NCBI GenBank assembly: GCA_029856145.1
Contig: JAHQWK010000008.1
Location: forward strand, 32,001 to 96,000
Reading direction: 5' to 3'
Source: Promethearchaeia archaeon
GTDB lineage: Archaea > Asgardarchaeota > Lokiarchaeia > Sigyniarchaeales > SOKP01
DNA length: 64,000 nt
Part shown: positions 42,990-62,998 of the stretch, piece after piece
Layout: each line of letters opens with the position of its first letter
Position numbering within the stretch: the stretch's first letter is position 1
The notes under the pieces: generated by a model
The model's input: the letters and a program-made list of their open reading frames with translations, nothing else
Databases searched by the model: none
What the model was told of the DNA's origin: nothing
Program-made: the position numbers and the translations under genes

Positions 42990-43566
42990 GTCTAAAAGTT
43001 TTATTATCCATCTACTAGATGATTAGAAAAATAATAGAGATTTAATAAATTTTTTAGAAAATTTCAATAACCAAATGCTTTAAATTTGTTATATATTATC
43101 AAAATTATAAAATTGGCGGTGCATTTTGACCACCTAATTCCCCTTATTGTGTATTTCTTCTAATCTTAGTAATTTTTTATAGGTAATTTTTTGGAACATT
43201 GAATAAAAGATAGATTTAGTGATCGAGAGCGATCAAAAACCCCCAAAATTGTTTAATTCTTTTAGTCATTTTTTTAACGATCGATTATAAAAATAATTCT
43301 GATCTATTTCAGTAATTTGGATTATTATTTTTGGATAAAAATATCTTTTTGCACTATGGATGGTCAATATTGATCGCATGGATCGAATAATGTTCATCAC
43401 ATGATCTATTTTTTCATAAATCGCTGTTTTCGAAACATAAAATGTCGAAAAGCGGTAATATTTAAATATGAAAAGTGATAATAGTATTTTAGTGATAAAT
43501 AATAATTAATAATATCAGAAGTTTTATAAAAAATTAATATACAATTTATAAGAAGTGATAAAAAAA

Positions 43567-43824
43567 ATGTGTAATAGTTGTAATTGCGACGCATATGACC
43601 AATGCTCGATAGTTGGTTACATGCCTGTTGGATTCTGTTGTACTAAATGTTATCTTTATAACGAGATGCACACGTGTTTAAAATCCACTGTGAAGGAGAA
43701 AGTGTCTAAGATTGAACCTGTGAGTGCTACGATTGAAGATGGTGTTTTAAAAGTCGTAGTTAGGAAAGATGAAAAAGAAGTTCCATTAGTGATTGACTTA
43801 GATAAACAGTTTGGCTCTGAATAG
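43567..43824 (+). CDS. Small Cys-rich protein with alpha-crystallin-like C-terminal strands
   Basis: MCNSCNCDAYDQC...FCCTKC...HTC, then VSATIEDGVLKVVVRK; ATG 43567 preferred over GTG 43555. Confidence 0.7.
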   Translation: MCNSCNCDAYDQCSIVGYMPVGFCCTKCYLYNEMHTCLKSTVKEKVSKIEPVSATIEDGVLKVVVRKDEKEVPLVIDLDKQFGSE

Positions 43825-43870: not shown

Positions 43871-43933
43871 AGAAAAAGTAAAAGGGTCAGTTCCCCAGCA
43901 AGTCCTTGAATAAAACGAGCGGGTGAGGTGAGT
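43871..43933 (+). repeat. Structured dispersed repeat, right-truncated copy
   Basis: agaaaaagtaaaagggtcagttccccagcaagtccttgaataaaacgagcgggtgaggtgagt; ends 5 bp from the ferredoxin stop. Confidence 0.9.
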
Positions 43934-43938
43934 TTCTC

Positions 43939-44160
43939 TTATTCCCATGCGGAATGATCTAAAATTGCGTTTGTTGGACACACATCTTGACACGCCATAC
44001 AATCAGTACACTCTCCAATATTCTCTGCTATGATTTTTCCATTAACTAATTTATAAACTTCTACAGGACACGCAATGATACAGTCCTCTGCACCAATGCA
44101 TCTGTCCAAGTCAATTTCAACCCAATGATCTTGATCTTCCCATTTTTTAATATTTACCAT
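43939..44160 (-). CDS. 2x[4Fe-4S] ferredoxin
   Basis: CIGAEDCIIACP (one Cys replaced) and CTDCMACQDVCP. Confidence 0.92.
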   Translation of the reverse strand: MVNIKKWEDQDHWVEIDLDRCIGAEDCIIACPVEVYKLVNGKIIAENIGECTDCMACQDVCPTNAILDHSAWE

Positions 44161-44293
44161 TTTTAGAATTCTCTTAGAATATTTAAGTTAAAATCAATTC
44201 ATTTTCTCTTTTTCTTCTTAAGGGTTGTTAAAATCTATTTAAATTTATAATTTATTCTTATTTTTCTAAAGCTTCTTTATTACCGTCGGAAAT

Positions 44294-45343
44294 CTAGTAT
44301 AAACGTAGAAAATTGAGAAATACTAATAAAAATCCTAATATAATGGTTAGTAAAAACAAATAAAAAGAATATACATTCCATTTATAGTGCCAAGTTCTTT
44401 TTTTGAGATCCCTCTTTCTTGATTTTTTGAAGCCAGTAATAGCTCCGGGTATGACAAGAATGATAGAAATTAAAGCTATTATACCATGAATAGTATAAAG
44501 TATGGCTCCTCTGTTTAAGAAGGTAGAGATAATCCAATATAAGAAAACACTTAAAGAAGTGAGAAAATAGCCAATACCAACGGTAATATGGAATTTCCTA
44601 TTTACAAATTTAGGAAGATCGTGAAAAAATTCAGTTACTGGAGACCTTTTTAATCCTGTCATAATAGCAACCCCTCCGAAAAGTAAAGAAATCGACAATA
44701 ACACAGCATGCCAAATCCAATCTGAGAAAGGTGTAATTGAAGCATCATCACTCCATCCTCGACTTTCCCAAAAACCTATATAATCATAATTTACAATCTC
44801 CATCCTAACGACCCATTTCACCCATTTATACCCTAGATGGTTTGGAGCAACAACTCTAACAGGAAATCCTTGTTCGACGGGAAGAACTTCACCATTCATT
44901 TCATATGCTAAAAGAACATTAGCCATACGTGCTTCTTCAATTGTCAAAGAGGAAGAATAATTATCTGCAGCATAAAAAACAACATCTATGGCCCCAGGTT
45001 TTACTTCCGCTAAATCTAGTAAATCCTTAACGGGAATTCCCTTCCATATTGCTGTAGCATATGGTCCATCAACACATTTTAGTGTAGCTAAAACCTCTTG
45101 TGAAGGTTGAGAAGTAAAGTTGGAATACGTAAAAGTCAAATTATTGTTGATATGTCCATTAATCGTTAATGTCCAATTATTTATCTCAATATGGGGAATT
45201 TCCCCCTTGCTTACTACAAAAAATTGATCATTAGGAGTAATAATAGCTCTACTAATTACGACTCCAGTCAATCCAATTAACGGAAGACATAACAAAATAA
45301 GAATTCCAATGTATTTTAAAAATATCTTTCTTTTTCTGTTCAT
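44294..45343 (-). CDS. Sulfite-oxidase-family molybdopterin oxidoreductase fused to a 4-TM His-containing membrane domain
   Basis: TPNDQFF, LKCVDG (Mo-ligand Cys), WKGIPV, LAYEMNGEVLPVEQGFPVR, GYKWVKWV, GFWESRGW; N-terminal anchor; four C-terminal helices each with a His. Confidence 0.88.
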   Translation of the reverse strand: MNRKRKIFLKYIGILILLCLPLIGLTGVVISRAIITPNDQFFVVSKGEIPHIEINNWTLTINGHINNNLTFTYSNFTSQPSQEVLATLKCVDGPYATAIWKGIPVKDLLDLAEVKPGAIDVVFYAADNYSSSLTIEEARMANVLLAYEMNGEVLPVEQGFPVRVVAPNHLGYKWVKWVVRMEIVNYDYIGFWESRGWSDDASITPFSDWIWHAVLLSISLLFGGVAIMTGLKRSPVTEFFHDLPKFVNRKFHITVGIGYFLTSLSVFLYWIISTFLNRGAILYTIHGIIALISIILVIPGAITGFKKSRKRDLKKRTWHYKWNVYSFYLFLLTIILGFLLVFLNFLRLY

Positions 45344-45502
45344 AGAATATTCTTCAAATCTGAAATATATAATATTTTATAAGAGAATTAAAGAGTTATG
45401 ATAATCGCTTACAATTAAATCAATTAAGATTCCCTAATTTTAAAATTTCCTTGCTATAAATTATAAGATTCATATTTAAAATTATGTATTTTAAAAAAAA
45501 TG

Positions 45503-45515
45503 AAAAGGGTCAGTT
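45503..45515 (+). repeat. Left-end remnant of the structured repeat
   Basis: aaaagggtcagtt, a 13-bp exact match to the repeat's left end, in an intergenic gap. Confidence 0.6.
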
Positions 45516-45604
45516 AATGCGGTTTTTTTTAGTAAATAAGGAAGATCTATAGTGAATTTTATTAAAATTAATACAATTAGATAATGAATAAAAATTAAAA
45601 AAAA

Positions 45605-47335
45605 TTATTTATATTTCTTATAAAATACGAGTCCTATTACTGCTATGGCTAGATATATTAGGTAATAATTACCGAAAGGAATTATATTCGGTTCTTCTTT
45701 AGCAATTCCAACTATTGCGAAAATACCCAAGTGATCTACACTGATTAGAACTTTTCCATCTCCAAGATCTATAAAATCTATTTTTTCCCACACTAAAGTA
45801 TCCATACTGAACCACCAAACTTCTATAGCCTTATATTTATTTACGTCGAAGTCAATGGTGATAGTTACAGGACCTTCCAAATTACTGGATTTGTTTATTA
45901 ATAAGTCAATGTACAGCAGACCATTTTTAAGGGATGCATATGTTGGATTATCAACCAACCCAGCAAAGAGTAAATGGGTAGCTTCAGAAACTGAAATCTC
46001 TACATTGATATCAAACTCTGTTGTACCATATGGGATGATGTTGAAATTATACCTTCCCTCGATTATTGTTGAATTTTTATAATATAAGAACCCCTGGTCA
46101 AAATTTGTTAAAGAAATACTATTATTCATGTATTTTATAATTCCATTTGGGAAATATTCTAAGTAATACACAATTTCTTGAGTTGATTTACGGATAATTT
46201 TTATCCAGTATTCACCATAAATTATCCTGTATTCTAAATCAAAATCCGGATCATACATTCTTATATTATCAAGCAGGTGATATAGATCAATACCCTTAGT
46301 TCCTTTTGGAACTAACAATGGCTGTCCACTCATGAAATATTCACCCGTCCTCATCAATAAATCTTCATTGGCAACAGCAATGGTAATATTTGAAGAGTCT
46401 AAAATCCAAGTTTCTGTTGGCCAATTCCATATAAAAATGTCTGCTCTGACTTCTTGAAATCCAGTTAATCCAAAATATGAGGATTTTGTAGAATTGATAA
46501 AGTCTATGATTTCTATTTTGTATTCCATTTTAAATAGGGATTTTCCCCCTGTATAAAAGATATCTCCAATATCTACGGCCCATTCAATGTCATCAAGAGG
46601 ATTAAAATCAAATATCCTAGTGAAATTAAGAGTAATACTATATGGAACCGTTCCTTGAATAGTAGTGTAAATTTCCCCAGTTTTTAATGTACCATTATTA
46701 TAATATTCTAATTTTACATATTCCCCGGATCCTGTACTGTTTTCAAGTAATATCGTATTAGGATCTGGAAATGATATGATTGGGGTTATATCGCCTCCTA
46801 AAAACATTATACAATCATCCTTCATTCTTTCAGCACACCATTGTATCATTAAACCATTGGTTCCATTTATTGGAATAAAAGGAGATGGGATTAGAGACAT
46901 GTAGGGATCAAATCCCAAGAAATCACCAACTCCCCCGTATGTAAAATTGACTAAAGAACAATTTACTATACCATAAGGCATTTCTTCTAATGAGTTGGTA
47001 GTTGTATTAAAAAATAAGTTTTTTAATTGGATTCCATAATAGTCGACACCAGTTCCTTTATAATTATTGAAATAAGTAATATCTGAGATATTATAGATAA
47101 CTCTAAATGGTCCAAAGAGAAGTTCAGTGCCATTATAATATCTAAGTTCCCAACCAACAACCGTACCCTCATCAAAATCCCAATAAATATTATCATTTGG
47201 AGGATCCAGAGGGGGATCGAAAGGTGTCGAAGCTACAGTATTTCTGATATTCAAATTTATCATTGAGAACAACAATATTAATGTAAATATTACTGACAAT
47301 ATTAAAACTCTATTTTTAACCATTTTGGATTTCAC
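45605..47335 (-). CDS. Secreted cell-surface glycoprotein with Loki-CTERM-like C-terminal anchor
   Basis: Signal peptide, many NxS/T sites, VDHLGIFAIVG, then IPFGNY-hydrophobic helix-KKYK. Confidence 0.85.
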   Translation of the reverse strand: MKSKMVKNRVLILSVIFTLILLFSMINLNIRNTVASTPFDPPLDPPNDNIYWDFDEGTVVGWELRYYNGTELLFGPFRVIYNISDITYFNNYKGTGVDYYGIQLKNLFFNTTTNSLEEMPYGIVNCSLVNFTYGGVGDFLGFDPYMSLIPSPFIPINGTNGLMIQWCAERMKDDCIMFLGGDITPIISFPDPNTILLENSTGSGEYVKLEYYNNGTLKTGEIYTTIQGTVPYSITLNFTRIFDFNPLDDIEWAVDIGDIFYTGGKSLFKMEYKIEIIDFINSTKSSYFGLTGFQEVRADIFIWNWPTETWILDSSNITIAVANEDLLMRTGEYFMSGQPLLVPKGTKGIDLYHLLDNIRMYDPDFDLEYRIIYGEYWIKIIRKSTQEIVYYLEYFPNGIIKYMNNSISLTNFDQGFLYYKNSTIIEGRYNFNIIPYGTTEFDINVEISVSEATHLLFAGLVDNPTYASLKNGLLYIDLLINKSSNLEGPVTITIDFDVNKYKAIEVWWFSMDTLVWEKIDFIDLGDGKVLISVDHLGIFAIVGIAKEEPNIIPFGNYYLIYLAIAVIGLVFYKKYK

Positions 47336-47500
47336 TAAATTTATTTATAAGGTATTAGGAATAATAGAATATTTAAATGTTTCTCACACCCCGAATTAAA
47401 TTGAATTTTTCATATTCCAGTAAGAAAACTGATTTCTGTTAAATTTGCTTAATTGGTACATTTTATAGTCTGAAAATTAGATTTAAATTTAACTGTTCCA

Positions 47501-47521
47501 GAAAAAGTAAAAGAGTCAGTT
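47501..47521 (+). repeat. Left-end remnant of the structured repeat
   Basis: gaaaaagtaaaagagtcagtt matches gaaaaagtaaaagggtcagtt (43872) at 20 of 21 positions. Confidence 0.75.
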
Positions 47522-47735
47522 TATTATTTACAACAAATATTTATAGTTCGATATAAAAGGTCATCTTATTAATTTTGATGATCATAAAAAAAAAAAATAA
47601 AAAAAAATTGTATCTAATAATATATTTTACCAACAAACGCTCTTTTAGCGTCAAACTGGGCCTTAACATTTTTGTAATATTCATAACCATTTTCCATTTT
47701 TTTTTCCACCATTTTTTTTGTTTAATTTTTTTTTG

Positions 47736-47891
47736 AGTGTGTATAATTTTTTATTCTCTGATCATAAAGTGTGTATTATCATATTTAAATGTTGTGGATC
47801 GAAGTGTGTATTACAAATCACAGAAAATGTGAATATTGTGAAAAGCAATGTTTTAATTATGTTCTATTATCTTTTTTAAAAGTGTGTATTA
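47736..47891 (+). repeat. Direct repeats AAGTGTGTATTA (3 exact + 1 partial)
   Basis: Exact copies at 47767, 47802 and 47880; AGTGTGTAT at 47736. Confidence 0.8.
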
Positions 47892-48098
47892 TAAAAATGA
47901 ATTACACAAAAAAATTCTTAAAAAGTCTAATAATTGCTGATTTGATTCTTTGTTTCTTTAAAAACACTCAATATTATTTTTGATAAATTGACCTATTTAG
48001 GCATTTCTTATGAAATATAAAATTGCAGAAGAAGATCGAGAGAAAAAAAATAGAAAAGAGTCTATAAAAAAGACAATAAAACATTTGGTAGTTCAATA

Positions 48099-48200
48099 TA
48101 AAGGGTCAGTTCCCCGACAAGTCCTTTAATAGAATGAGTGGGTGAGGTGAGTATTCAAAGGAATAAATCAGGGAACTGGTGGTATAATTGTGTGTTCAGT
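48099..48200 (+). repeat. Structured dispersed repeat, full copy
   Basis: aagggtcagttcccc...gggaactggtggtataattgtgtgttcag; arms CAGTTCCC/GGGAACTG. Confidence 0.95.
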
Positions 48201-48274
48201 TCAGTAAATAAGGAAAATATTGATATTTTCTTTGAATTATTGACTTTAAGAAATTAAGATTGAGAGAAGAAGCT

Positions 48275-49372
48275 TTAATATGATTTAAATTCCCATTTAT
48301 CTAAATGCATATACATCGACCTTAGAATACTTGTTGTGTATGGCTCTCCGGATATTTCTTTAATATCTAGGAAAGCTTTTGTTATGTGTTTACAGAACTT
48401 CATACTCTTCATTCTTTTATTTATATAATTAGGACAGTCATGCTTAATAATTCTATTTTTTAAATCAATAAGTAAATTGTAATCTTGTCTCGATCCTGCA
48501 ATAACACTAAAAATTGTTTCACTGTTTACCATACCCCGAGTTTTCAGTTTAACATTCTTAATTTTTCGATTTTCGCGATCTACGTCTAATCTCGAGAAAT
48601 ACGTGATTAAATCCTCAAAACATAATTCTTTTGAACTCATTAATTCAGGGATAGGCCATTTGTCAAAAAGCATGTGCCTTCCAGCGACTAAAATATTAAT
48701 CTCTCCTGCATTTATTTCTTTAAGTGCTCTTGATAGATCCCATACCGTGGACCCAACTGTGAACACATCATCTATTATTAATACATCTTTTTCTTGGAGA
48801 TCATTAACATCTATTTTGTGAACCCCTTGGATATCATTAAATCGTTCTTCTAGTGTTTTTCCTTTATTTTTTCCTGTATCTTTCAATTTAAATGTTTTTT
48901 CAATAATACTTTCTAAATTAAATCCCAATTTTTTCAATTTTTTTAAAAAGGGATTAACAAGGTAAATGCATTGATTTTTCTCGTCTCTATTATACTTAGG
49001 GGGTATCGTTATATATGCTGTATTTTCAAATAAATCAATATTTTGGGTAAAGATGTAGGATAACCCATCTGCTAACAGTTTTCCCGCATATTTTTTAAAT
49101 TTTTCTCCTTTTTTAAATTTTAAAAGAGAAATAAGTTCAGAAAGAATGTTAATCGGGATTTTATAATTACCAATTTCATAAGCATGATATATACCTAATG
49201 TTTTGACTTTGTTAAAATACCATTCCTTAACTATATCGGGTGGAAGTGAGCAATTCAAGCATAAATCTAGACCTTTTTCCACTTGATTCATACACTTTAA
49301 GCAGAAAGGTTCTTGAATTAATCTTATTGGAATTTTCCCCTCGAGATAATAGGTATCCTTAAGATTTGTCAT
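48275..49372 (-). CDS. ComF-like phosphoribosyltransferase with N-terminal double Zn ribbon and C-terminal SWIM-like finger
   Basis: CLKC..CLNC; ERFNDIQG; PRPP-binding VLIIDDVFTVGST; HDCPNY...FCKHI. Confidence 0.85.
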   Translation of the reverse strand: MTNLKDTYYLEGKIPIRLIQEPFCLKCMNQVEKGLDLCLNCSLPPDIVKEWYFNKVKTLGIYHAYEIGNYKIPINILSELISLLKFKKGEKFKKYAGKLLADGLSYIFTQNIDLFENTAYITIPPKYNRDEKNQCIYLVNPFLKKLKKLGFNLESIIEKTFKLKDTGKNKGKTLEERFNDIQGVHKIDVNDLQEKDVLIIDDVFTVGSTVWDLSRALKEINAGEINILVAGRHMLFDKWPIPELMSSKELCFEDLITYFSRLDVDRENRKIKNVKLKTRGMVNSETIFSVIAGSRQDYNLLIDLKNRIIKHDCPNYINKRMKSMKFCKHITKAFLDIKEISGEPYTTSILRSMYMHLDKWEFKSY

Positions 49373-49397
49373 TTATGTTTCAAGAAAAAGAAAGTTA

Positions 49398-50408
49398 CTA
49401 ATATTTAAAAAGATTAGTTTGAACAACTGAATCTTTTTCTTTAGATTTTATTTGCTCTCTTTCTTCATATTCGAATAAGAGCATTTCTGCTATATAATCA
49501 ACATCATTTACATTACTAATTTTAGCTCCCCCCTTCTCCTTGATGATTTTGTTAGGAACATAAGCTTGCTCACATTCTTCAATTGGTTCTACTGCGATTG
49601 CTGGTTTTCCTTGTTCATCCCCAAAGCGTAACTGCCATTGAGTTCCACTAAACTTGTTTCCTTCCACAACAATATTTCCTAACCCTAATCCGCTTGTAAT
49701 TCGGTTCCTTATCTGCAATGCGCGTTTAGTTACGCTTTTGTAAGGGAATCTTTCAGATATTAAAGCTCCATTTGTCACAAGTTCCTTCACTAGTCTTTGA
49801 TTTTCTTTAGGATAAAGATTTAATATTCCGGAGGCAATAACACCTATAGCTCTCCCCCCGTTTTCAAGAGCACTCTCTATTGCGATTGTGTCGATACCTC
49901 TTGCGAATCCGCTGACAACCGTAAATCCTAATTCTGAGAATCTTTTTGCTATTGATCTTGCCATTTCTTTTCCATATTTTGTTGGATTTCTGGAGCCAAT
50001 AATTGCAACTGCTTTAAAATCTTGAGGATTAATTTCACCTTTTATAAATATTAGTTTTGGAGGTTGCTTAAGGAATTTTAAAATGGGAGGGTATCCTGTA
50101 TCAAAATAACTGAAACATTTTATTTGATTACTTTCACAAATTCTTAAATCTTGTTCTATTCTGTTAAAAACCTTGTTACTTTTTCTTTTTCCGAATTTGG
50201 TTATTTTCTCATCAAGCCCTCTAATTTGGGCGTTAAAATTGGTTTTTAAGCTTAGAAGGAATGACTTAAACTTATTTTCAGAAAAAGAAACAATTTCATT
50301 AAAGGAAAAGTCGTTCTTCTTAATGATTTTCAGGACAGATAACGGGAGTGATACTTCTCTACTTAAAAAAATGTAATCAATTAAATTTGACTGTTCCAGA
50401 ATTATCAC
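49398..50408 (-). CDS. dprA: DNA-processing protein DprA/Smf
   Basis: YPPILK..QPPKLIFIKG, VAIIGSRNPTKYG, VVSGFARGIDT, YPKEN, RNRITSGL, VVEG. Confidence 0.93.
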   Translation of the reverse strand: MIILEQSNLIDYIFLSREVSLPLSVLKIIKKNDFSFNEIVSFSENKFKSFLLSLKTNFNAQIRGLDEKITKFGKRKSNKVFNRIEQDLRICESNQIKCFSYFDTGYPPILKFLKQPPKLIFIKGEINPQDFKAVAIIGSRNPTKYGKEMARSIAKRFSELGFTVVSGFARGIDTIAIESALENGGRAIGVIASGILNLYPKENQRLVKELVTNGALISERFPYKSVTKRALQIRNRITSGLGLGNIVVEGNKFSGTQWQLRFGDEQGKPAIAVEPIEECEQAYVPNKIIKEKGGAKISNVNDVDYIAEMLLFEYEEREQIKSKEKDSVVQTNLFKY

Positions 50409-50644
50409 ACTATTTGGAAGCTAAAAATTGTATAAAACTATATACAGAGAGTAAGTTTTTTAATCTTCTTATTCATTAATGATTAATTTTCAATATAAGA
50501 TTAATCATTAATCTTTTTAAATTGTTTTTCTTTACCGAATCTTCTTTTTAATTTATACTTATAAAAATTAATTGAACAAAAAGCTTATCATTTTCTTTTA
50601 TACACATAGTTCCAGATATTATGTTGTATAATAAATTAGACAAG

Positions 50645-50754
50645 AGAAAAGTAAAAGGGTCAGTTCCCCGACAAGTCCTTTAATAGAATGAGTAGGTGAG
50701 GTGAGTATTCGAAGGAATGAATCAGGGAACTGATGGTAGAATTGTGTGTTCAGT
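50645..50754 (+). repeat. Structured dispersed repeat, full copy
   Basis: Near-identical to 53275-53380. Confidence 0.95.
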
Positions 50755-50819
50755 AAATGTGATTTTATTAGAAAAAATAAAAGTAAGATTTTTTACGCAT
50801 TGGCTAAATTCTACATATA

Positions 50820-51878
50820 TTATTCTTTTGAAGATGGATAATCACACTTAGTAGTTGGTTTAGTTTTCAATGCCAAGCGTTCTCGTTTCCAATCTTCTAT
50901 TCCCACGACTTTAAGGTTTTTTAAGAGTTCAAGTCCCTCAAAATTTTCAACAGGATTATCCCATAAACTTAGTTCCCTTAAATTAACTAAATTCTCAACA
51001 TTTTGCGTCTGCATTATTTTATTGTTGCTTAAATCTAAGTCTTCTAATTTCCATAACGAATCTAACCCCTCAATCTCAGAAATTTTGTTTTGTGCTAAGC
51101 TCAATCGCTTTAAATTTAGCAGACTTTCCAATCCTTTTATCTTAGAAATTTCATTTGCATCCAAATACAAATATTCCAAATTCTTAAGACTTTCTAGACC
51201 TTGTATTTCTTTAATTTTATTAGCACCAAGAATTAATTCTTTTAAATTACGTAAATTCTCAAGACCTTTTATCTTAGAAATTTCATTTCTATCTAAATAC
51301 AGATATTCTAAGTTCCTGAGACTCTCTAAACCTTCTAGTTCTTTAATTTTATTAGAACTGAGAATTAATTTCTTCAAATTATTTAAATTCTCAAGACCTT
51401 TGATTTCTGTAATATTATTCTCGTGAATGTTTAAAATCTCTAATTTTCTGAGCTCCTCCAGCCCTTTTATCTCAGTAATTTCATTTTGAGTGAGAATTAA
51501 CTTTTTTAAGCTAATTAAAGTGCCAAGCCCTTCTATATTTTTGATGGGATTACCATGATAATTAGCATCTCCAAAGTATAAACCTTCTAATTTCCTAAGG
51601 TTCGCTATTCCTTCAACCTTGGTAACGTAGTTCCCACTTATGTTTAAGAATTTTAGGTCTGTAAGATTCTCAAGATTCTCAAGTTTATCAATAATATTTC
51701 CCATAAGATACAATACTTCTAAATTATTCAATGTATCCAACCCCTCAACCTCAGAAAGACTACACGGAATAGTTATAAGCTCTAACTTATTATTATGAGC
51801 AAAATATTTTTTTCCTCGAATAATAGCATACTCTTCAGAATTTTTATCTGCCATCTCCAAGATATTTTTACGAAACAT
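50820..51878 (-). CDS. Leucine-rich repeat protein (SDS22/internalin-like), paralog 1
   Basis: 22-aa repeats LxxLxLxxNxIxxIxGLxxLxx. Confidence 0.95.
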   Translation of the reverse strand: MFRKNILEMADKNSEEYAIIRGKKYFAHNNKLELITIPCSLSEVEGLDTLNNLEVLYLMGNIIDKLENLENLTDLKFLNISGNYVTKVEGIANLRKLEGLYFGDANYHGNPIKNIEGLGTLISLKKLILTQNEITEIKGLEELRKLEILNIHENNITEIKGLENLNNLKKLILSSNKIKELEGLESLRNLEYLYLDRNEISKIKGLENLRNLKELILGANKIKEIQGLESLKNLEYLYLDANEISKIKGLESLLNLKRLSLAQNKISEIEGLDSLWKLEDLDLSNNKIMQTQNVENLVNLRELSLWDNPVENFEGLELLKNLKVVGIEDWKRERLALKTKPTTKCDYPSSKE

Positions 51879-51956
51879 ACCTATATATATTTATGGGCAG
51901 TGATAACTATGAGAGTTCCATAAAAATAAAGAAATTAATTATTTCTAATATTCTTT

Positions 51957-52063
51957 AAAAAAGTAAAGGGTCAGTTCCCCGAAAAGTCCTTGAATAAAAC
52001 GAGTGGATGAGGTGAGTATTCAACGGAAAGGCGCAGGGAACTGGTGATAGAATTGTGTGTTCA
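51957..52063 (+). repeat. Structured dispersed repeat, full (diverged) copy
   Basis: Same arms; internal substitutions (ttgaata/tattcaa inner stem). Confidence 0.93.
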
Positions 52064-52126
52064 TGTTATCAAATTTAATTTTACTAGAAAAAATAAAAGT
52101 AAGATTACTTACGCATTAGCTAAATT

Positions 52127-53194
52127 TTACGTATAATATTCTTTTGAAGATGGATAATCACACTTAGTAGTTGGTTTAGTTTTCAATGCCAAACGCTCTC
52201 GTTTCCAATCTTCTATTCCCACGAATCGAAGATTTTTCAAGGAATTAAGCCCTCCAAACTCTTCAATAGGATTTTTCTCTAAAGTGATTACTTCTAAATT
52301 TGCTAAATTCTCAAGACCTTGAATTTGGGTTATGTTGTTCTCATCTAGCGCTAGACTTTCTAACTTCCATAACGAATCTAACCCCTCAATCTCAGAAATC
52401 TTGTTTTGTGTTAAACTCAATCGCTTCAAATTTAGTAGACCTTCCAACCCTTTTATCTTAGAAATTTGATTTCGTTCTAATTCTAAATGCTGCAAATTCC
52501 TGAGGTTATTTAAACCTTTGATTTCTTTAATTTTATTAGATTCAAGAACTAATTGTTTTAGATTGCTTAATTTATCAAGACCTTTGATCTCTGAAATTTT
52601 ATTCATGCCTAAATCTAATAATTCCAATTTTTTAAGGTTATCTAAACCTTTTATTTCCCTAATTTCATTAAGACCGAGATATAATTCTCTCAAATTGCTT
52701 AGTTTATCAAGACCTTTAATTTCTGTTATTTTATTTTGATCTAATTGTAAGATCTCTAAATTTCTAAGGTATTCTAACCCCTTTATCTCAAATATTTCAT
52801 TTTGAAAGAAAGAAAGCTTCTTTAAGTTGGTTAACGTGTTTAATCCTTTAATTTCTGAAATGGGATTGCCATGATTATTACCGTCTCCAAACCATAAAGT
52901 CTCTAGATTCGTTAAATTTTCTAAACCTTCGATATCAGTAATATAATTTCCACTTAAAATCAAAAGCTTTAAGTTCGTGAGGGCCTTTAGATTTTCAAGT
53001 CTCTCAATGCTATTAGTATTGAGAACCAATGTTCTTAAATTTTCTAAATTCTCGAGGCCTTCAATTTCAGAAAGACTACATGTGACATCAATGAGCTCTA
53101 ATACATTATCACAAATAAAATGTTTCTTTCCACGAATAAGAACATATTCCTCAGAATTTTTGTCTGCCATCTCTAAGATATTTTTACGAAGCAC
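52127..53194 (-). CDS. Leucine-rich repeat protein (SDS22-like), paralog 2
   Basis: Same repeat type; N-terminus and last ~28 aa nearly identical to paralog 1. Confidence 0.95.
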   Translation of the reverse strand: MLRKNILEMADKNSEEYVLIRGKKHFICDNVLELIDVTCSLSEIEGLENLENLRTLVLNTNSIERLENLKALTNLKLLILSGNYITDIEGLENLTNLETLWFGDGNNHGNPISEIKGLNTLTNLKKLSFFQNEIFEIKGLEYLRNLEILQLDQNKITEIKGLDKLSNLRELYLGLNEIREIKGLDNLKKLELLDLGMNKISEIKGLDKLSNLKQLVLESNKIKEIKGLNNLRNLQHLELERNQISKIKGLEGLLNLKRLSLTQNKISEIEGLDSLWKLESLALDENNITQIQGLENLANLEVITLEKNPIEEFGGLNSLKNLRFVGIEDWKRERLALKTKPTTKCDYPSSKEYYT

Positions 53195-53274
53195 ACCTAT
53201 ATATATTTATGGGCAGTGATAACTATGAGAATTCCATAAAAATAAGGAAATTAATCATTTCTAATATTCTTTTA

Positions 53275-53380
53275 AAAAGTAGAAGGTCAGTTCCCCGACA
53301 AGTCCTTTAATAGAATGAGTGGGTGAGGTGAGTATTCAAAGGAATGAATCAGGGAACTGATGATAGAATTGTGTGTTCAG
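53275..53380 (+). repeat. Structured dispersed repeat, full copy
   Basis: TCAGTTCCC...GGGAACTGA outer stem; TCCTTT.AATA/TATT.AAAGGA inner stem. Confidence 0.95.
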
Positions 53381-53424
53381 CTCAGTAATTTTGAATTTAC
53401 CAGAAAAAATAAAAGTAAGATTAC

Positions 53425-53691
53425 TTACGCATTAGCCAAATATTCGTTTAGCACGATGTTTAATTCTACTTCTGAGTTTTGGATCTTCTTCAACAGATTC
53501 CTCAGTCCATACTCATTTAATAGTAGCTCGATGAGATTCTTATAAACTGCGGTAATATTATCTTTACCAGCTTCATAATAAAATTTATCATCACTAAGGG
53601 TAAGATCTAAAAGATCATATAAACCTTTCAAGGCGTCCTTTATATTTTCAAAATTCCTTACTGCTTTTTCTTTCGTTTTTGAACTATTCAT
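53425..53691 (-). CDS. Hypothetical helical protein (88 aa)
   Basis: ATG with strong SD TGAGGTGAG and an upstream TTTATATA box; its C-terminal codons recur elsewhere with synonymous changes. Confidence 0.85.
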   Translation of the reverse strand: MNSSKTKEKAVRNFENIKDALKGLYDLLDLTLSDDKFYYEAGKDNITAVYKNLIELLLNEYGLRNLLKKIQNSEVELNIVLNEYLANA

Positions 53692-53722
53692 TTAACTTAC
53701 TCACCTCAATATTATTATGTAA

Positions 53723-53746
53723 ATGATCATATATAAAGATGATCAT
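53723..53746 (-). promoter_or_regulatory. TATA box flanked by two ATGATCAT palindromes
   Basis: atgatcat-atataaag-atgatcat about 32-55 bp upstream of the 88-aa gene start. Confidence 0.55.
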
Positions 53747-53958
53747 TATGCATAATTTTTCCGTCGTAGAACATATATCAGTATAGTGGGATTGATCACC
53801 CCTCGTCGATCTCAATTATATTTTTTTTACTAATTTAATCATTGAAGGAAATCTCAATTATAATGATGTCAATATACATTAATTTCGATAGCGAAGATTG
53901 ATCATTAATAACGAAAATCATTAATTGATATTGATTTTTGATTGAAAAACAAAATTAA

Positions 53959-54198
53959 AAAAAAGAATTAATTTCTGTATTATTCTCTTTAGGTTCTGGT
54001 TTAATAGCATTATTACTTGCGAAATATACTGTATTATATCTCGGAGGTCATGGGAAAACACCAAAAAATCAACCTACAGGGAATCTAAAAGGTTTTAAAC
54101 AGGATGATAAAAGCACTGCTGCACTATTATTTGGCATTGGGAGTTTATTGATGGGAATGTTATTTCTAGAACTAGGTTGTGCCTTGGCTGACGAATAA
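53959..54198 (+). pseudogene. 5'-truncated hydrophobic remnant resembling the C-terminus of 55707..57017
   Basis: Open frame KKELISVLFSLGSGLIALLLAKYTVLYLGG...STAALLFGIGSLLMGMLFLELGCALADE* with no start codon near its 5' end. Confidence 0.55.
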
Positions 54199-57787: not shown

Positions 57788-58027
57788 TTATTGATTTGAA
57801 TAAGCTTCTTTTAATCCAATATATTTATTCCAGGAGTTAAAGAAAGCATGCATATATATATAAGAATTAATGAGTTCAATTACATAGGATTTTCCTTCAT
57901 CCGTTATTTCTATCGCATATCTTGGTCTAAAACGTTTATCCTTAAAATTTAATTTTTGTAGGATAAAAATATGACCACATTTATCACACAAATCAGGCAA
58001 ATGACAAAAGGGATTTAGCTGTTTCAA
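57788..58027 (-). CDS. Doubtful ORF or remnant, wHTH-wing-like motif
   Basis: YAIEITDEGKSYV resembles the PadR/MarR wing; TTG start, no SD. Confidence 0.3.
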   Translation of the reverse strand: MKQLNPFCHLPDLCDKCGHIFILQKLNFKDKRFRPRYAIEITDEGKSYVIELINSYIYMHAFFNSWNKYIGLKEAYSNQ

Positions 58028-59291: not shown

Positions 59292-59528
59292 TTAATGATG
59301 AATAGGGCGTCCTTTCTTATGGATAGATTTACCTACTACAGCTTCACTACCTTCGAGTACCATTTCTGAAATTGTAGGGTGGCTATGGATGGTCTCTCCA
59401 ATATCATGAATGGTTAACCCATGTTGCATTGCTAGTGCTATTTCAGCTATCAATTCGGGGGCTTCAGTTCCAATACAGGAAGCACCGAGAATTTTATGTG
59501 TAGTTTTATCAGCAAGAACCATAAAGAA
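59292..59528 (-). pseudogene. Duplicated 3' end of lpdA (copy 2)
   Basis: FFMVLADKTTHKILGASCIG...HSHPTISEM...GRPIHH* aligns to the last ~78 aa of 61517..62998. Confidence 0.93.
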
Positions 59529-59695
59529 CAAATATCAGATTTCAAAATTCAAGGCCTTCAAACTTTTCAATAGGATTTGAAATCAAATTTCCCCTTAAAT
59601 TTAGTCTTTTTAAATTTATATTTGAATCAACGCTTTTATCTTTGAAATCTCATTTCAATTATATTAACAATTAATATGATAAAAAAGAAAAAAAG

Positions 59696-60750: not shown

Positions 60751-60987
60751 TTATTGATGAATAGGACGTCCTTTTTTGTGTATAGCTTTTCCTACAACCG
60801 ATTCTGCTGCTTCAAGTACCATCTCCGAAATGGTCGGATGAGAGTGAATTGTCTCTGCAATGTCATGTATCGTTAACCCATGTTGCATTGCTAATGCTAT
60901 TTCAGCTATCAATTCGGGGGCTTCAGTTCCAATACAAGATGCTCCTAAGATTTTATGGGAGCTTTTATCAGCTAAAATCATTAAGAA
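60751..60987 (-). pseudogene. Duplicated 3' end of lpdA (copy 1)
   Basis: FLMILADKSSHKILGASCIG...GRPIHQ*; same 5' breakpoint as copy 2. Confidence 0.93.
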
Positions 60988-60989
60988 AC

Positions 60990-61019
60990 GTTCTTAATGA
61001 ATATTTAGCAAATGCGTAA
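60990..61019 (+). pseudogene. 3' remnant of the 88-aa gene (inverted)
   Basis: GTT CTT AAT GAA TAT TTA GCA AAT GCG TAA = VLNEYLANA*, identical in protein to the end of 53425..53691. Confidence 0.85.
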
Positions 61020-61072
61020 GAATCCTTTTTTCTGATTTTACATTTTCTCTTAAATTTAATTTAATGCCCTAA

Positions 61073-61176
61073 ACTGAACACACAATTCTATCATCAGTTC
61101 CCTGATTCATTCCTTTGAATACTCACCTCACACACTCATTTTATTCAAGGGTTTGCCGGGGAACTGACCCTTTTAC
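61073..61176 (-). repeat. Structured dispersed repeat, full copy, inverted
   Basis: Reverse complement of the 53275 copy; its GTAAAAGGG end overlaps the TAA of 61173..61409. Confidence 0.95.
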
Positions 61177-61409
61177 CTTAATTTGTAAAATCTTTTACCA
61201 TCTTTAATTTCCGTTTCGACTAAACCCTGTTTTTCTAACATCCTTAATTTAAAATTCACATAATAGTAATCCATGGTATCTTTAGCTTCTTTTAGGTTAA
61301 ATATAATATCGTTTACACTTTGAAATTCCCTAGTTAAAGATTTTAAAATAATTTCTTCTGTAACTATTTCTATATCAGATTCTTGGTGAAGATTTTTAAC
61401 TTTCTTCAT
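61173..61409 (-). CDS. Small winged-helix-like protein
   Basis: ILKSL...SVNDII...KLRMLEKQGLVETEIKDGKRFYKL wing motif. Confidence 0.7.
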   Translation of the reverse strand: MKKVKNLHQESDIEIVTEEIILKSLTREFQSVNDIIFNLKEAKDTMDYYYVNFKLRMLEKQGLVETEIKDGKRFYKLR

Positions 61410-61516: not shown

Positions 61517-62998
61517 TTAATGATGAATAGGGCGTCCTTTCTTATGGATAGATTTGCCGACTACGGCTTCACAACCTTCCAGTACTAATTCTGAAATTGT
61601 GGGATGACTGTGAATCGTTTCTGTTACCTCGTGAATGGTTAGACCATGTTTCATCGCTAAAGCTATTTCTGCTATTAATTCGGAGGCTTCAGCTCCGATA
61701 CAAGATGCACCGAGAATTTTATGTGTAGTTTTATCAGCCAGTACCATAATGAAACCTTCTTCTTCTCCCATACATTTAGCTTTACTGAGTGATTGATATG
61801 GAAATTGTCCCATTAACACATCAAAACCCAGATTCTTTGCTATCTTCCTTCTATATCCAACAGAACCGATATTAGGAGAAGTAAAAATGGTTGCTGGTAC
61901 GACAGTATAATCTGTTTTCATTTCTTCTGAAGGAAAACCTCCAATACTTGTTAAGGAATTAGCTACCGCAACATCTGCTTCGTGATAAGCAACATGAGCA
62001 AGCATAATTCCACCCGTCACATCACCTATTGCGTATACTCCCTTCACTGCGGTTTCTAAAGTTTTCGGATTTACTTTAATAGCTCCTCTTTCTGTTTCAA
62101 TACCTACCACCTCAAGTCCTATATTTTTGGATTCTTTTGCACGTCCTATTGATACTAAGCACAAATCTGCTTCAAATATATCTTTTTCAGCATTTTCTGT
62201 TTGATCACGAGGAACATCAGCGGAACAAGTTGTCGCCTTTACACCATTTCCTGTATTTTCTACAGATAGCACGTTTTTTGCTGTATGAATATCTATGCCA
62301 AGATTTTCAAATTTTTTTTGAAGTACTTTAACAATCATTGGTTCTTCAGTAGCAATAGGAGAGGAAAGATATTCTAACATAGTAACCTTACTTCCAAAAG
62401 TTGCAAAGATATTAGCAAATTCACAACCTATAACTCCAGCACCTATAATTAATAATCGTTTTGGAATTATCTTAAAATTAGGATCTAGAATATCGTCACT
62501 CGTTAAAATTCTTTCATGATCGATATTGAAAGCAGGAATTAAAGCTGGAGATGATCCAGTAGCAATAATTATTCTTTTTGCTTTAATAGTTGTATTTTTT
62601 TCACCTTCAATTGAGATTTCGAATCCAGTATCAATATTTCCTCCGATTATCTTCCCAAATCCATTATAAATATCGTTTTTCCAACCCTTCTCTAAAGCTT
62701 CAATTCCATCTACTAATTCTTTTACCACCTGATTTTTCCGTTCTACAGCTTTAGAAAAAGAGAGTTTGAAATCAGAAACTTCTATTCCAAATTCATCAGC
62801 TTCTTTAATTTTTTCGATTAAATGAGAAGATGCATATAAAGCTTTTGTAGGAATACAACCTCTATTAAGACATGTACCTCCCAGTTTATCTTTTTCAATT
62901 AAAGCAACTTTTGCACCGTATTGTGCCGCTCTAATAGCTGAATGATAGCCTCCAGGCCCTGCTCCGATAATAGCTAAATCATATTGGTTTTCACTCAT
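61517..62998 (-). CDS. lpdA: Dihydrolipoamide dehydrogenase
   Basis: GAGPGGY, GGTCLNRGCIPTK, ATGS, GAGVIGCE, AIGDV, MLAH, HSHPTISE. Confidence 0.97.
   Translation of the reverse strand: MSENQYDLAIIGAGPGGYHSAIRAAQYGAKVALIEKDKLGGTCLNRGCIPTKALYASSHLIEKIKEADEFGIEVSDFKLSFSKAVERKNQVVKELVDGIEALEKGWKNDIYNGFGKIIGGNIDTGFEISIEGEKNTTIKAKRIIIATGSSPALIPAFNIDHERILTSDDILDPNFKIIPKRLLIIGAGVIGCEFANIFATFGSKVTMLEYLSSPIATEEPMIVKVLQKKFENLGIDIHTAKNVLSVENTGNGVKATTCSADVPRDQTENAEKDIFEADLCLVSIGRAKESKNIGLEVVGIETERGAIKVNPKTLETAVKGVYAIGDVTGGIMLAHVAYHEADVAVANSLTSIGGFPSEEMKTDYTVVPATIFTSPNIGSVGYRRKIAKNLGFDVLMGQFPYQSLSKAKCMGEEEGFIMVLADKTTHKILGASCIGAEASELIAEIALAMKHGLTIHEVTETIHSHPTISELVLEGCEAVVGKSIHKKGRPIHH

Follow-up and report, generated by a model that had tools for sequence, protein, structure and literature searches.

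The window analysed here is a 64,000-nt stretch of a Promethearchaeia contig, and the locus of interest lies between two conserved genes. One of them is a minus-strand gene of 88 aa (53425-53691), hereafter the anchor, which encodes a protein of three helices without a known family and is conserved in Promethearchaeota. Its leader contains an extended Shine-Dalgarno 11-mer (53698-53708, minus strand), the target of the hairpin loop described below. The far border of the array is formed by ZF89, a convergent Cys-rich gene of 85-89 aa on the plus strand (43555-43824). Across some 21 genomes of the genus the anchor is 74-94% identical, and the repeat always lies about 50-75 nt downstream of it, indicating that the 88-aa gene is a conserved anchor and not a cassette, as the initial annotation had it. 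The anchor protein gave no Pfam, PADLOC or Atlas match, an HMM search for homologues returned only 65 relatives, and the AlphaFold model (pLDDT 79) produced only generic helical structure matches. We also observed that the leaders are rich in GATC.

The blocks between the repeat copies hold the genes previously assigned to them, and all seven cargo genes in this genome (G000) are on the minus strand, as had been proposed. LRR protein 2 (355 aa, 52127-53194) and LRR protein 1 (352 aa, 50820-51878; 65% identity to LRR2) together make up a 1316-bp tandem unit of 76% identity. They are followed outward by a DprA-family, ShosA-like protein (49398-50408) and a PRTase-domain protein that is weakly ShosT-like (48275-49372). 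The block at 47566-47924, which had been described as non-coding and iterated, is indeed non-coding but turned out to be a captured chromosomal scrap, a copy (83% over 368 bp) of an intergenic stretch on contig C26, where the source sits downstream of a 110-aa gene. The remaining cargo consists of a 576-aa surface/membrane-anchored protein (45605-47335; 70% to the G016 copies), a molybdopterin oxidoreductase fused to a cytochrome b561-like membrane part (44294-45343) and a 2x[4Fe-4S] ferredoxin (43939-44160). The junction between the ferredoxin and the most distal repeat copy, r1, is common to L051 and G016.

Eight copies of the repeat are present at the locus, seven direct and one inverted; all seven of the copies reported earlier were located and face the same way, on the minus strand, whereas the inverted one had been missed. 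The copy in the anchor 3' region, r7 (approximate span 53273-53441), contains the intact 72-nt hairpin (53288-53359) with its anti-Shine-Dalgarno loop (53324-53334), followed by a U-tract (about 53273-53287). The displaced copies, likewise with approximate spans, are r6 (51957-52128) and r5 (50646-50809), each with a displaced anchor end (the last codons in r6), the 3' UTR and a full hairpin (at 51972-52043 and 50661-50732, respectively), and r4 (48093-48200), with a full hairpin (48107-48178) and part of the 3' UTR. Only the hairpin 3' tip and U-tract are present in r3 (47509-47521) and r2 (45503-45515), and the loop and 3' arm in r1 (43873-43933), the original copy adjoining the convergent gene. 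The inverted copy r8 (60980-61179, plus strand), which comprises the last 12 anchor codons and a full hairpin (61095-61166), is a relic of a local inversion.

With regard to the 5' edges (r6 -112, r5 -109, r4 -56, r3 and r2 about +37, r1 -1), the proposed increase in truncation with distance from the 88-aa gene is evident from r6 through r5 and r4 to r3 and r2, but not for the most distal copy, r1, which is longer than r2 and r3. AAAAG(G/A)GTCAGTT was confirmed as the shared end motif: its five exact matches in the genome (3.55 Mb) are all located no more than 18 kb from the locus, and since it is confined in this way, the 13-nt copies r2 and r3 are not chance matches. Both r4 and r5 differ from r7 by 1-2 nt only, and the sequence of r6 is nearer to the L053 allele than to r7. 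The copies are almost limited to one locus per genome, in contrast to the dispersed family B repeats. A MITE or REP reading was ruled out, the copies being locus-bound.

The repeat is a 72-nt hairpin in the 3' region of the conserved anchor gene and not an attC-type site, and comparison of loci indicates that it is a host regulatory RNA element selected for pairing with the anchor leader. The loop is complementary to the anchor's own Shine-Dalgarno leader in 31/31 loci, the pairing extends over at least 10 bp in 29/29 loci and also in G101 and G083, and it is retained in all 29 proximal copies versus 24 of 39 displaced ones, although the loci compared are related to each other and these counts are not independent. 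Because two independent compensatory changes (in G033 and in G101/G083) tie the loop to the Shine-Dalgarno leader, the 3' hairpin represents an Asgard cis-regulatory RNA with comparative support; G:U intermediates of the pairing were seen in L055 and G001. The extended Shine-Dalgarno 11-mer occurs six times in the genome, namely in five hairpin copies and the anchor leader, and of the 49 genes that share this Shine-Dalgarno core, a single one shows an antisense match no more than 250 nt from its stop codon. Anchor homologues without the hairpin also lack the extended leader.

In the outer stem, every one-sided change yields G:U on the gene's strand, and the folding z on that strand ranged from -3.7 to -5.8; stem covariation alone was not significant in the covariation test. 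Rfam covariance models assigned the hairpin to no family (one chance match only, E 0.97), and the anti-Shine-Dalgarno RNA element is not described in the literature searched. Readings of the hairpin as tRNA, SECIS, C/D or H/ACA were dismissed by eye, their motifs being absent, and a weak RNA-model match in G050, from another family and with no anchor gene nearby, was excluded from the counts. The hairpin pattern was unmatched on viral contigs, hence no phage attP was found.

Hairpin and U-tract would end the transcript of the 88-aa gene, and the loop would base-pair with the Shine-Dalgarno leader of the same mRNA in a 5'-3' long-distance interaction. Such pairing should block translation, the block being relieved by trimming of the 3' end or by binding of the antisense 3' UTR of ZF89 to the loop. 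Covariation between aligned leaders and loops shows the pairing; repression and release are what we infer from it.

Besides the locus in G000, relatives provide both empty and filled states. Six loci are empty, with the 88-aa gene, a single repeat copy and the convergent 89-aa gene, whereas all 14 filled loci have a repeat copy at both ends and cargo that is mostly species-specific, so that gene content varies among relatives. G017 and G076 differ by a break at the repeat, on the side facing the 88-aa gene, as had been anticipated; the displaced proximal copy in G064 is G026-like, and one module ends in the repeat in both G001 and G062. Taken together, the empty loci, the filled loci, the G017/G076 break and G064 support the serial, polarised gain of DNA by the 88-aa gene, mostly anchor-proximal and with one new copy per gain. 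In contrast, co-orientation is not a general rule and holds only in G000, since the cargo genes of relatives divide into 35 that are co-oriented and 22 of opposite orientation. The cargo in relatives consists of multi-gene blocks of up to about nine genes in either orientation, and the islands span only 0.4-17 kb. The edges of the copies are ragged (5' from -148 to about +37, 3' mostly from +47 to +74), and recent duplications (94-97% identical) begin at differing points within the anchor CDS or UTR. On the 3' side the edges concentrate at the U-tract, and on the 5' side several fall at -4, a class that may represent one old event per clade.

An insertion-with-duplication scar is also found at lpdA and at about 20 other gene ends without the hairpin. 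The intact lpdA (61517-62998, minus strand), a dihydrolipoamide dehydrogenase-like gene named from sequence motifs, has a 3' end that groups with G006, while two displaced lpdA 3' ends on the same strand group with G072 (60751-60981) and lie nearest L050/L053 (59292-59531; 90% to L050). The three ends fall in different lineages, two of the placements having 99% bootstrap, and these groupings indicate that the displaced ends derive from other lineages. Eight loci show a duplicated lpdA 3' end, all of them with additional DNA behind lpdA; the duplication is absent from every locus in which lpdA directly adjoins the anchor. Across the genome, a displaced copy of the 3' end lies downstream of 20 genes, and a displaced copy of the 5' end upstream of seven.

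The explanation we favour, with moderate confidence, is a regulatory hairpin and a scar array built by RadA-type single-crossover capture of relatives' DNA, with selection keeping the proximal hairpin; integron-like in look, the array was most likely built by ordinary homologous recombination. Donor DNA from related Lokiarchaeia would carry the anchor 3' end, the hairpin and the donor's own cargo, and a single homologous (RadA-type) crossover would integrate it; the donor molecule would be circular, or else a second, illegitimate joint would complete the insertion. With every such event, a complete gene end and hairpin would come to lie by the anchor, older cargo would shift outward and a displaced copy would be left whose 5' edge is the end of the donor fragment. 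Selection would preserve the proximal hairpin, and displaced copies would decay. Comparison of aligned loci shows the insertion with duplication, from which we infer the RadA-type enzyme and the circular intermediate; RadA-family genes are present. Both the variable length of the anchor duplications and the donor alleles in the duplicated segment (the lpdA ends, and r6 near L053) are as expected from capture. On the other hand, the homology of 13-60 bp in r1-r3 is small for RadA, and these copies therefore need later erosion or microhomology joints. The near-identity of r4 and r5 to r7 could reflect in-situ copying or gene conversion just as well as import.

In E. coli, RecA-dependent single crossovers of circles with a truncated gene end gave duplications of 109-950 bp (PMC3240628). 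This homology-driven single crossover, or HFIR, resembles the situation here in that a homologous gene end anchors foreign DNA, a duplication of variable length is left and only a RecA/RadA-type enzyme is needed. However, the bacterial cases are rare laboratory events, whereas the pattern read here from sequence is archaeal, natural and repeated genome-wide.

The hairpin or its 3' tip might instead serve as a site-specific recombination site on which a XerA-like or unrecognised recombinase acts in trans, with the array integron-like and the ragged 5' edges due to decay, which we consider unlikely. Flanking copies at all filled loci, the 13-nt tip shared by the minimal copies, the G017/G076 breakpoint and the module end shared by G001 and G062 would all suit such a site. 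Moreover, the stem-bulge-stem shape resembles attC, 51/54 genus genomes have a gene for a XerA-like recombinase that could work in trans, and a fixed cut site could account for the concentration of 3' edges at the U-tract and of several 5' edges at -4. Yet none of the eight copies has a pair of attC cores (RYYYAAC...GTTRRRY) on either strand, and no Xer/dif (IMEX, pdif) site of about 28 bp with an 11-6-11 dyad was seen by eye in the alignment. The differing starts of the fresh duplications, the near restriction of copies to one locus unlike family B, the cargo in either orientation, the equal scars at hairpin-free gene ends and an RNA under selection likewise speak against the dedicated non-attC site of an integron-like system that had been proposed. 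In line with the initial annotation, no integrase was found in cis. Genome-wide family searches gave no tyrosine recombinase (PF00589), serine recombinase, reverse transcriptase or Y1 transposase in G000 (97% complete), and the locus contigs examined were free of matches to tyrosine, serine and Y1 recombinases.

CALINs lack IntI by definition. Integrons and CALINs, including archaeal ones (Ghaly et al. 2022, PMC9668308), share with the locus tandem accessory modules split by a folded repeat, variable content with growth at one end, copies more similar within a lineage, absence of an integrase in cis and an Asgard host. Unlike them, the locus has no attC core and gave no IntI match, and its repeat is a host mRNA element that is single in the empty locus; its edges are ragged, with no one fixed crossover nucleotide, and multi-gene blocks occur in both orientations, single-gene cassettes of one orientation being found only in G000. 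Tandem genomic islands at tRNA or gene 3' ends have integrase attL/attR sites and displaced gene fragments. The locus resembles these in its intact proximal gene and in displaced 3' fragments that decay distally, and differs in having no integrase on the examined contigs, a span of only 0.4-17 kb and a crossover point that is not fixed.

It is decidedly improbable, in our judgement, that site-specific import is absent and the hairpin serves both convergent genes (as a sense element for the anchor and as antisense 3' UTR/terminator for ZF89), such that only hairpin-duplicating insertions survive and unequal crossing-over expands the array. Nearly every examined ZF89 gene does retain an adjoining repeat copy, usually loop and 3' arm, while the 5' arm decays, and LRR1/LRR2 form a tandem unit; however, ZF89-side loops have often lost pairing to the leader, and the internal copies r2-r5 with their unrelated cargo, the foreign lpdA alleles and the 20 other gene-end scars are left unexplained. 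Survival of this kind is probably a contributing filter and not the cause. Copies made as 5'-truncated anchor cDNA, or as Tn7-like or HUH scars at the gene end, have very little probability and are largely refuted: the fixed 3' end at the U-tract and the variable 5' ends look like retrocopies, but the genome has no reverse transcriptase, the locus contigs have no Y1 transposase, the cargo is multi-gene DNA in both orientations, 5'-end scars exist too, and the duplications are 13-230 bp as against the 5-bp target duplications of Tn7. In favour of Tn7, housekeeping genes of Asgard archaea are targets of such elements (10.1101/2025.07.27.667033).

Under homologous capture, integron-looking arrays in Lokiarchaeia can form without any integrase, and the gene-end duplications with foreign alleles point to frequent capture from neighbouring species, which bears on how relatives of eukaryotes acquire accessory and defence genes. 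Anti-Shine-Dalgarno control of the sort proposed here is known mainly from bacterial toxin mRNAs. As in the type I toxin-antitoxin mRNAs hok/Sok and aapA/IsoA (PMC6733600), an anti-Shine-Dalgarno at the mRNA 3' end is predicted to pair with a small gene's ribosome-binding site, sequestration of the Shine-Dalgarno in cis being indicated computationally by complementarity and compensatory changes, and the convergent transcript could supply the antisense RNA, with the ZF89 3' UTR as candidate. The locus differs in its helical, apparently soluble 88-aa protein in place of a short hydrophobic peptide, in the position of the anti-Shine-Dalgarno in a hairpin loop (kissing/pseudoknot geometry) and in being single-copy and chromosomal. 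It is doubtful that the anchor gene and its hairpin make up an RNA-controlled toxin/addiction module that has the ZF89 3' UTR as antisense partner and is selected as an integrase-free platform exchanging repeat-bounded modules, including defence genes, among Lokiarchaeia; if true, this would be the first type I-like system of Asgard archaea, and the module would be a capture platform because every insertion must restore the hairpin. The locus also calls for caution with repeat-based cassette calls, because the same genome holds a truly dispersed family of short sites, family B, which behaves differently.

Read on the strand of the conserved 88-aa gene (the anchor; window 53425-53691, minus strand), the repeat folds as a hairpin of 72 nt with a U-tract behind it; folding z-scores are -3.7 to -5.8, compared with -1.0 to -2.5 for the opposite strand. 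One-sided changes in the outer stem all yield G:U on the anchor strand; a covariation test of the stem gave no significance, and an Rfam search with the repeat gave no matching family. The best-conserved part of the repeat is the hairpin loop, ACTCACCTCA, which is perfectly complementary to the leader of the anchor itself, TGAGGTGAGT. Loop and leader pair over at least 10 bp in 29 of 29 loci, plus two further loci (below, G numbers denote related genomes, L numbers their locus contigs and C numbers contigs of the source genome). Compensatory changes were seen twice: in G033 both loop and leader are altered, and G101 and G083 have a different pair altered on both sides; a G:U intermediate of the loop-leader pair is seen in L055 and G001. 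The pairing is lost in 15 of the 39 displaced copies and in no proximal copy. The 11-mer involved occurs six times in the genome, in five hairpin copies and the single anchor leader. The Shine-Dalgarno core is shared by 49 genes, and an antisense match after the stop codon occurs in just one of them, the anchor. Where anchor homologues have no hairpin, the extended leader is missing as well.

Comparison of the loci shows that the leader pairing of the proximal hairpin is under purifying selection, and the sequences make a strong case that RNA-RNA pairing masks the anchor's ribosome-binding site. By analogy with the hok and aapA mRNAs (PMC6733600), this pairing would repress anchor translation. 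At the sequence level, the anchor RNA is similar to the mRNA lock of type I toxin mRNAs. No regulatory RNA of this sort in Asgard archaea was described in the literature searched, and the RNA is the more surprising and better-supported part of the findings compared with the gene-capture array. A distant anchor paralogue (25% identity) lies at C7:166756-167025, with counterparts in most genomes of the genus; in the source genome it has no hairpin copy nearby.

The source genome measures 3.55 Mb with a G+C content of 30%, and relatives of the anchor protein are mostly labelled Promethearchaeota/Lokiarchaeota. The seven repeat copies of the initial annotation, five long and two of 13 nt, are present where it placed them, but an inverted eighth copy (r8, 60980-61179) had been overlooked. 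Genome-wide, the end motif common to the copies is matched exactly five times, always at the array locus, and r8 contains one of these matches. The cargo gene assignments of the initial annotation were also confirmed, except that the supposed iterated non-coding block (47566-47924) is a copy of a C26 intergenic stretch (83% identity). The DprA and PRTase pair (48275-50408) resembles in sequence ShosTA, a toxin-antitoxin system directed against phages (PADLOC ShosA, E 1e-56; ShosT weak, E 4e-7), the alternative being a DprA/ComF competence pair. Also among the cargo, 57788-58027 is a fragment that matches a segment of a 209-aa C28 gene at 86% identity, and at 44294-45343 a molybdopterin oxidoreductase is fused to a membrane domain resembling cytochrome b561, an arrangement like MsrPQ in a single chain. 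The regions upstream of the two small genes are rich in GATC (7 in 560 nt, 42990-43555; 5 in 300 nt, 53692-53991) relative to 2.9 per kb genome-wide.

Of the genomes searched, 24 of 54 in the genus and 3 of 32 in a sister genus contain the repeat, almost always at the same single locus with the order lpdA (dihydrolipoamide dehydrogenase-like), anchor, repeat, the convergent Cys-rich gene ZF89 and an hdr operon. Six loci are empty (L044, L055, L056, L061/G119, G101 and G083), with a single copy in a gap of 150-200 bp. Each of the 14 filled loci whose two borders fall on a single contig has a copy at either end, locus counts not being independent because the loci share ancestry and several ZF89-side copies date to one event per clade. 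The cargo (0.4-17 kb) mostly differs between these 14 loci. G017 and G076 are 95% identical from one repeat onward, with additional DNA in G017 on the anchor side, and the displaced copy in G064 is most similar to the proximal copy of G026. It had been proposed that cassette gain or loss would break at the repeat; the loci differ in content and gain DNA in association with the repeat, and the proposal therefore holds at the species level. One and the same 6-kb gene block (loci in G001, G023, G007 L072 and G033 L047) lies between repeats in G001 (L036:4183-10313), while in G023 it precedes lpdA; blocks therefore change position inside the region. Copy r8 and the inverted layouts of G010, G016, G028 and G006 record local inversions. 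On a second contig of G033 lies an incomplete copy of the type seen in a different clade, possibly contamination.

Comparison of the loci shows that insertions duplicate a target stretch of variable length, lie mostly on the anchor side and involve DNA from relatives. We infer that a fragment consisting of gene end, hairpin and cargo enters through a single RadA-type crossover; RadA-family genes were found, and in E. coli single-crossover integration of circularised DNA gave duplications of 109-950 bp (PMC3240628). A block between direct copies could then loop out and re-enter at another site, so that the locus would behave as a cassette array does although it is not an integron. The locus fits both features of homology-driven capture that are open to testing, and no capture array of this sort in Asgard archaea was described in the literature searched.

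A recombinase acting in trans on the repeat seems unlikely to us; minimal copies do share a retained tip and offer little length for homologous recombination, and a XerA-like gene occurs in 51 of 54 genus genomes, located away from the locus. It was not found in the source genome (97% complete), probably owing to an assembly gap. The evidence speaks against an integron-type site: the outcome is that of an integron array, but the locus fails three defining integron features, with no attC core on either strand of the repeat, mixed cargo orientation in relatives (35 co-oriented, 22 opposite, multi-gene blocks being frequent) and variable duplication starts. No match to a tyrosine, serine or Y1 recombinase lies on any locus contig examined. 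The starts of recent duplications (94-97% identity) are scattered between a point 86 nt within the anchor CDS and the tip of the hairpin, and most of the ends fall in the U-tract. Selection would be expected to set the same 3' limit, since an unbroken hairpin is required and the stop of the following gene comes about 50 nt later.

The neighbouring lpdA serves as a control. Although it lacks a hairpin, duplication of its 3' end is seen in eight loci, and the window contains two such duplicates. All eight have additional DNA behind lpdA; there is no duplication in loci where lpdA abuts the anchor, and in some loci with DNA behind lpdA no copy was detectable. The 5' edges of the duplicates range from -244 to -29. 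Across the source genome, a displaced 3' copy lies downstream of 20 genes and a displaced 5' copy upstream of 7; the reverse arrangements were counted 5 times and once, most of them being mirror matches of the same pairs. In the tree of lpdA 3' ends, that of intact lpdA (61517-62998) groups with G006 (99/93), the fragment at 60751-60981 with G072 (99/96), and the fragment at 59292-59531 comes closest to L050/L053. The displaced hairpin r6 (51957-52128) differs at 7 positions from that of L053 and at 10 from the intact proximal copy r7, and LRR1 and LRR2 stand as far apart (65% identity) as they do from the LRR of G062; the duplicated ends therefore include alleles of other species. The three lpdA ends, from different lineages, together with conflicting anchor and lpdA trees in G030, point to interspecies recombination around the locus.

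Other repeats occur in the source genome. Family B, a dispersed palindromic repeat of 29-38 bp between accessory genes, has 11 copies there (sites on C26 at 86452, 89323, 90422 and 91521, and on C30, C9, C15 and C17) and is also found in 50 of 53 other genus genomes; it has a better claim than the hairpin repeat to being a true recombination site. Two intergenic families lie on C12, C15, C23 and C26: family C, with seven copies mostly 50-125 nt upstream of genes and promoter/operator-like, and family D, with four.
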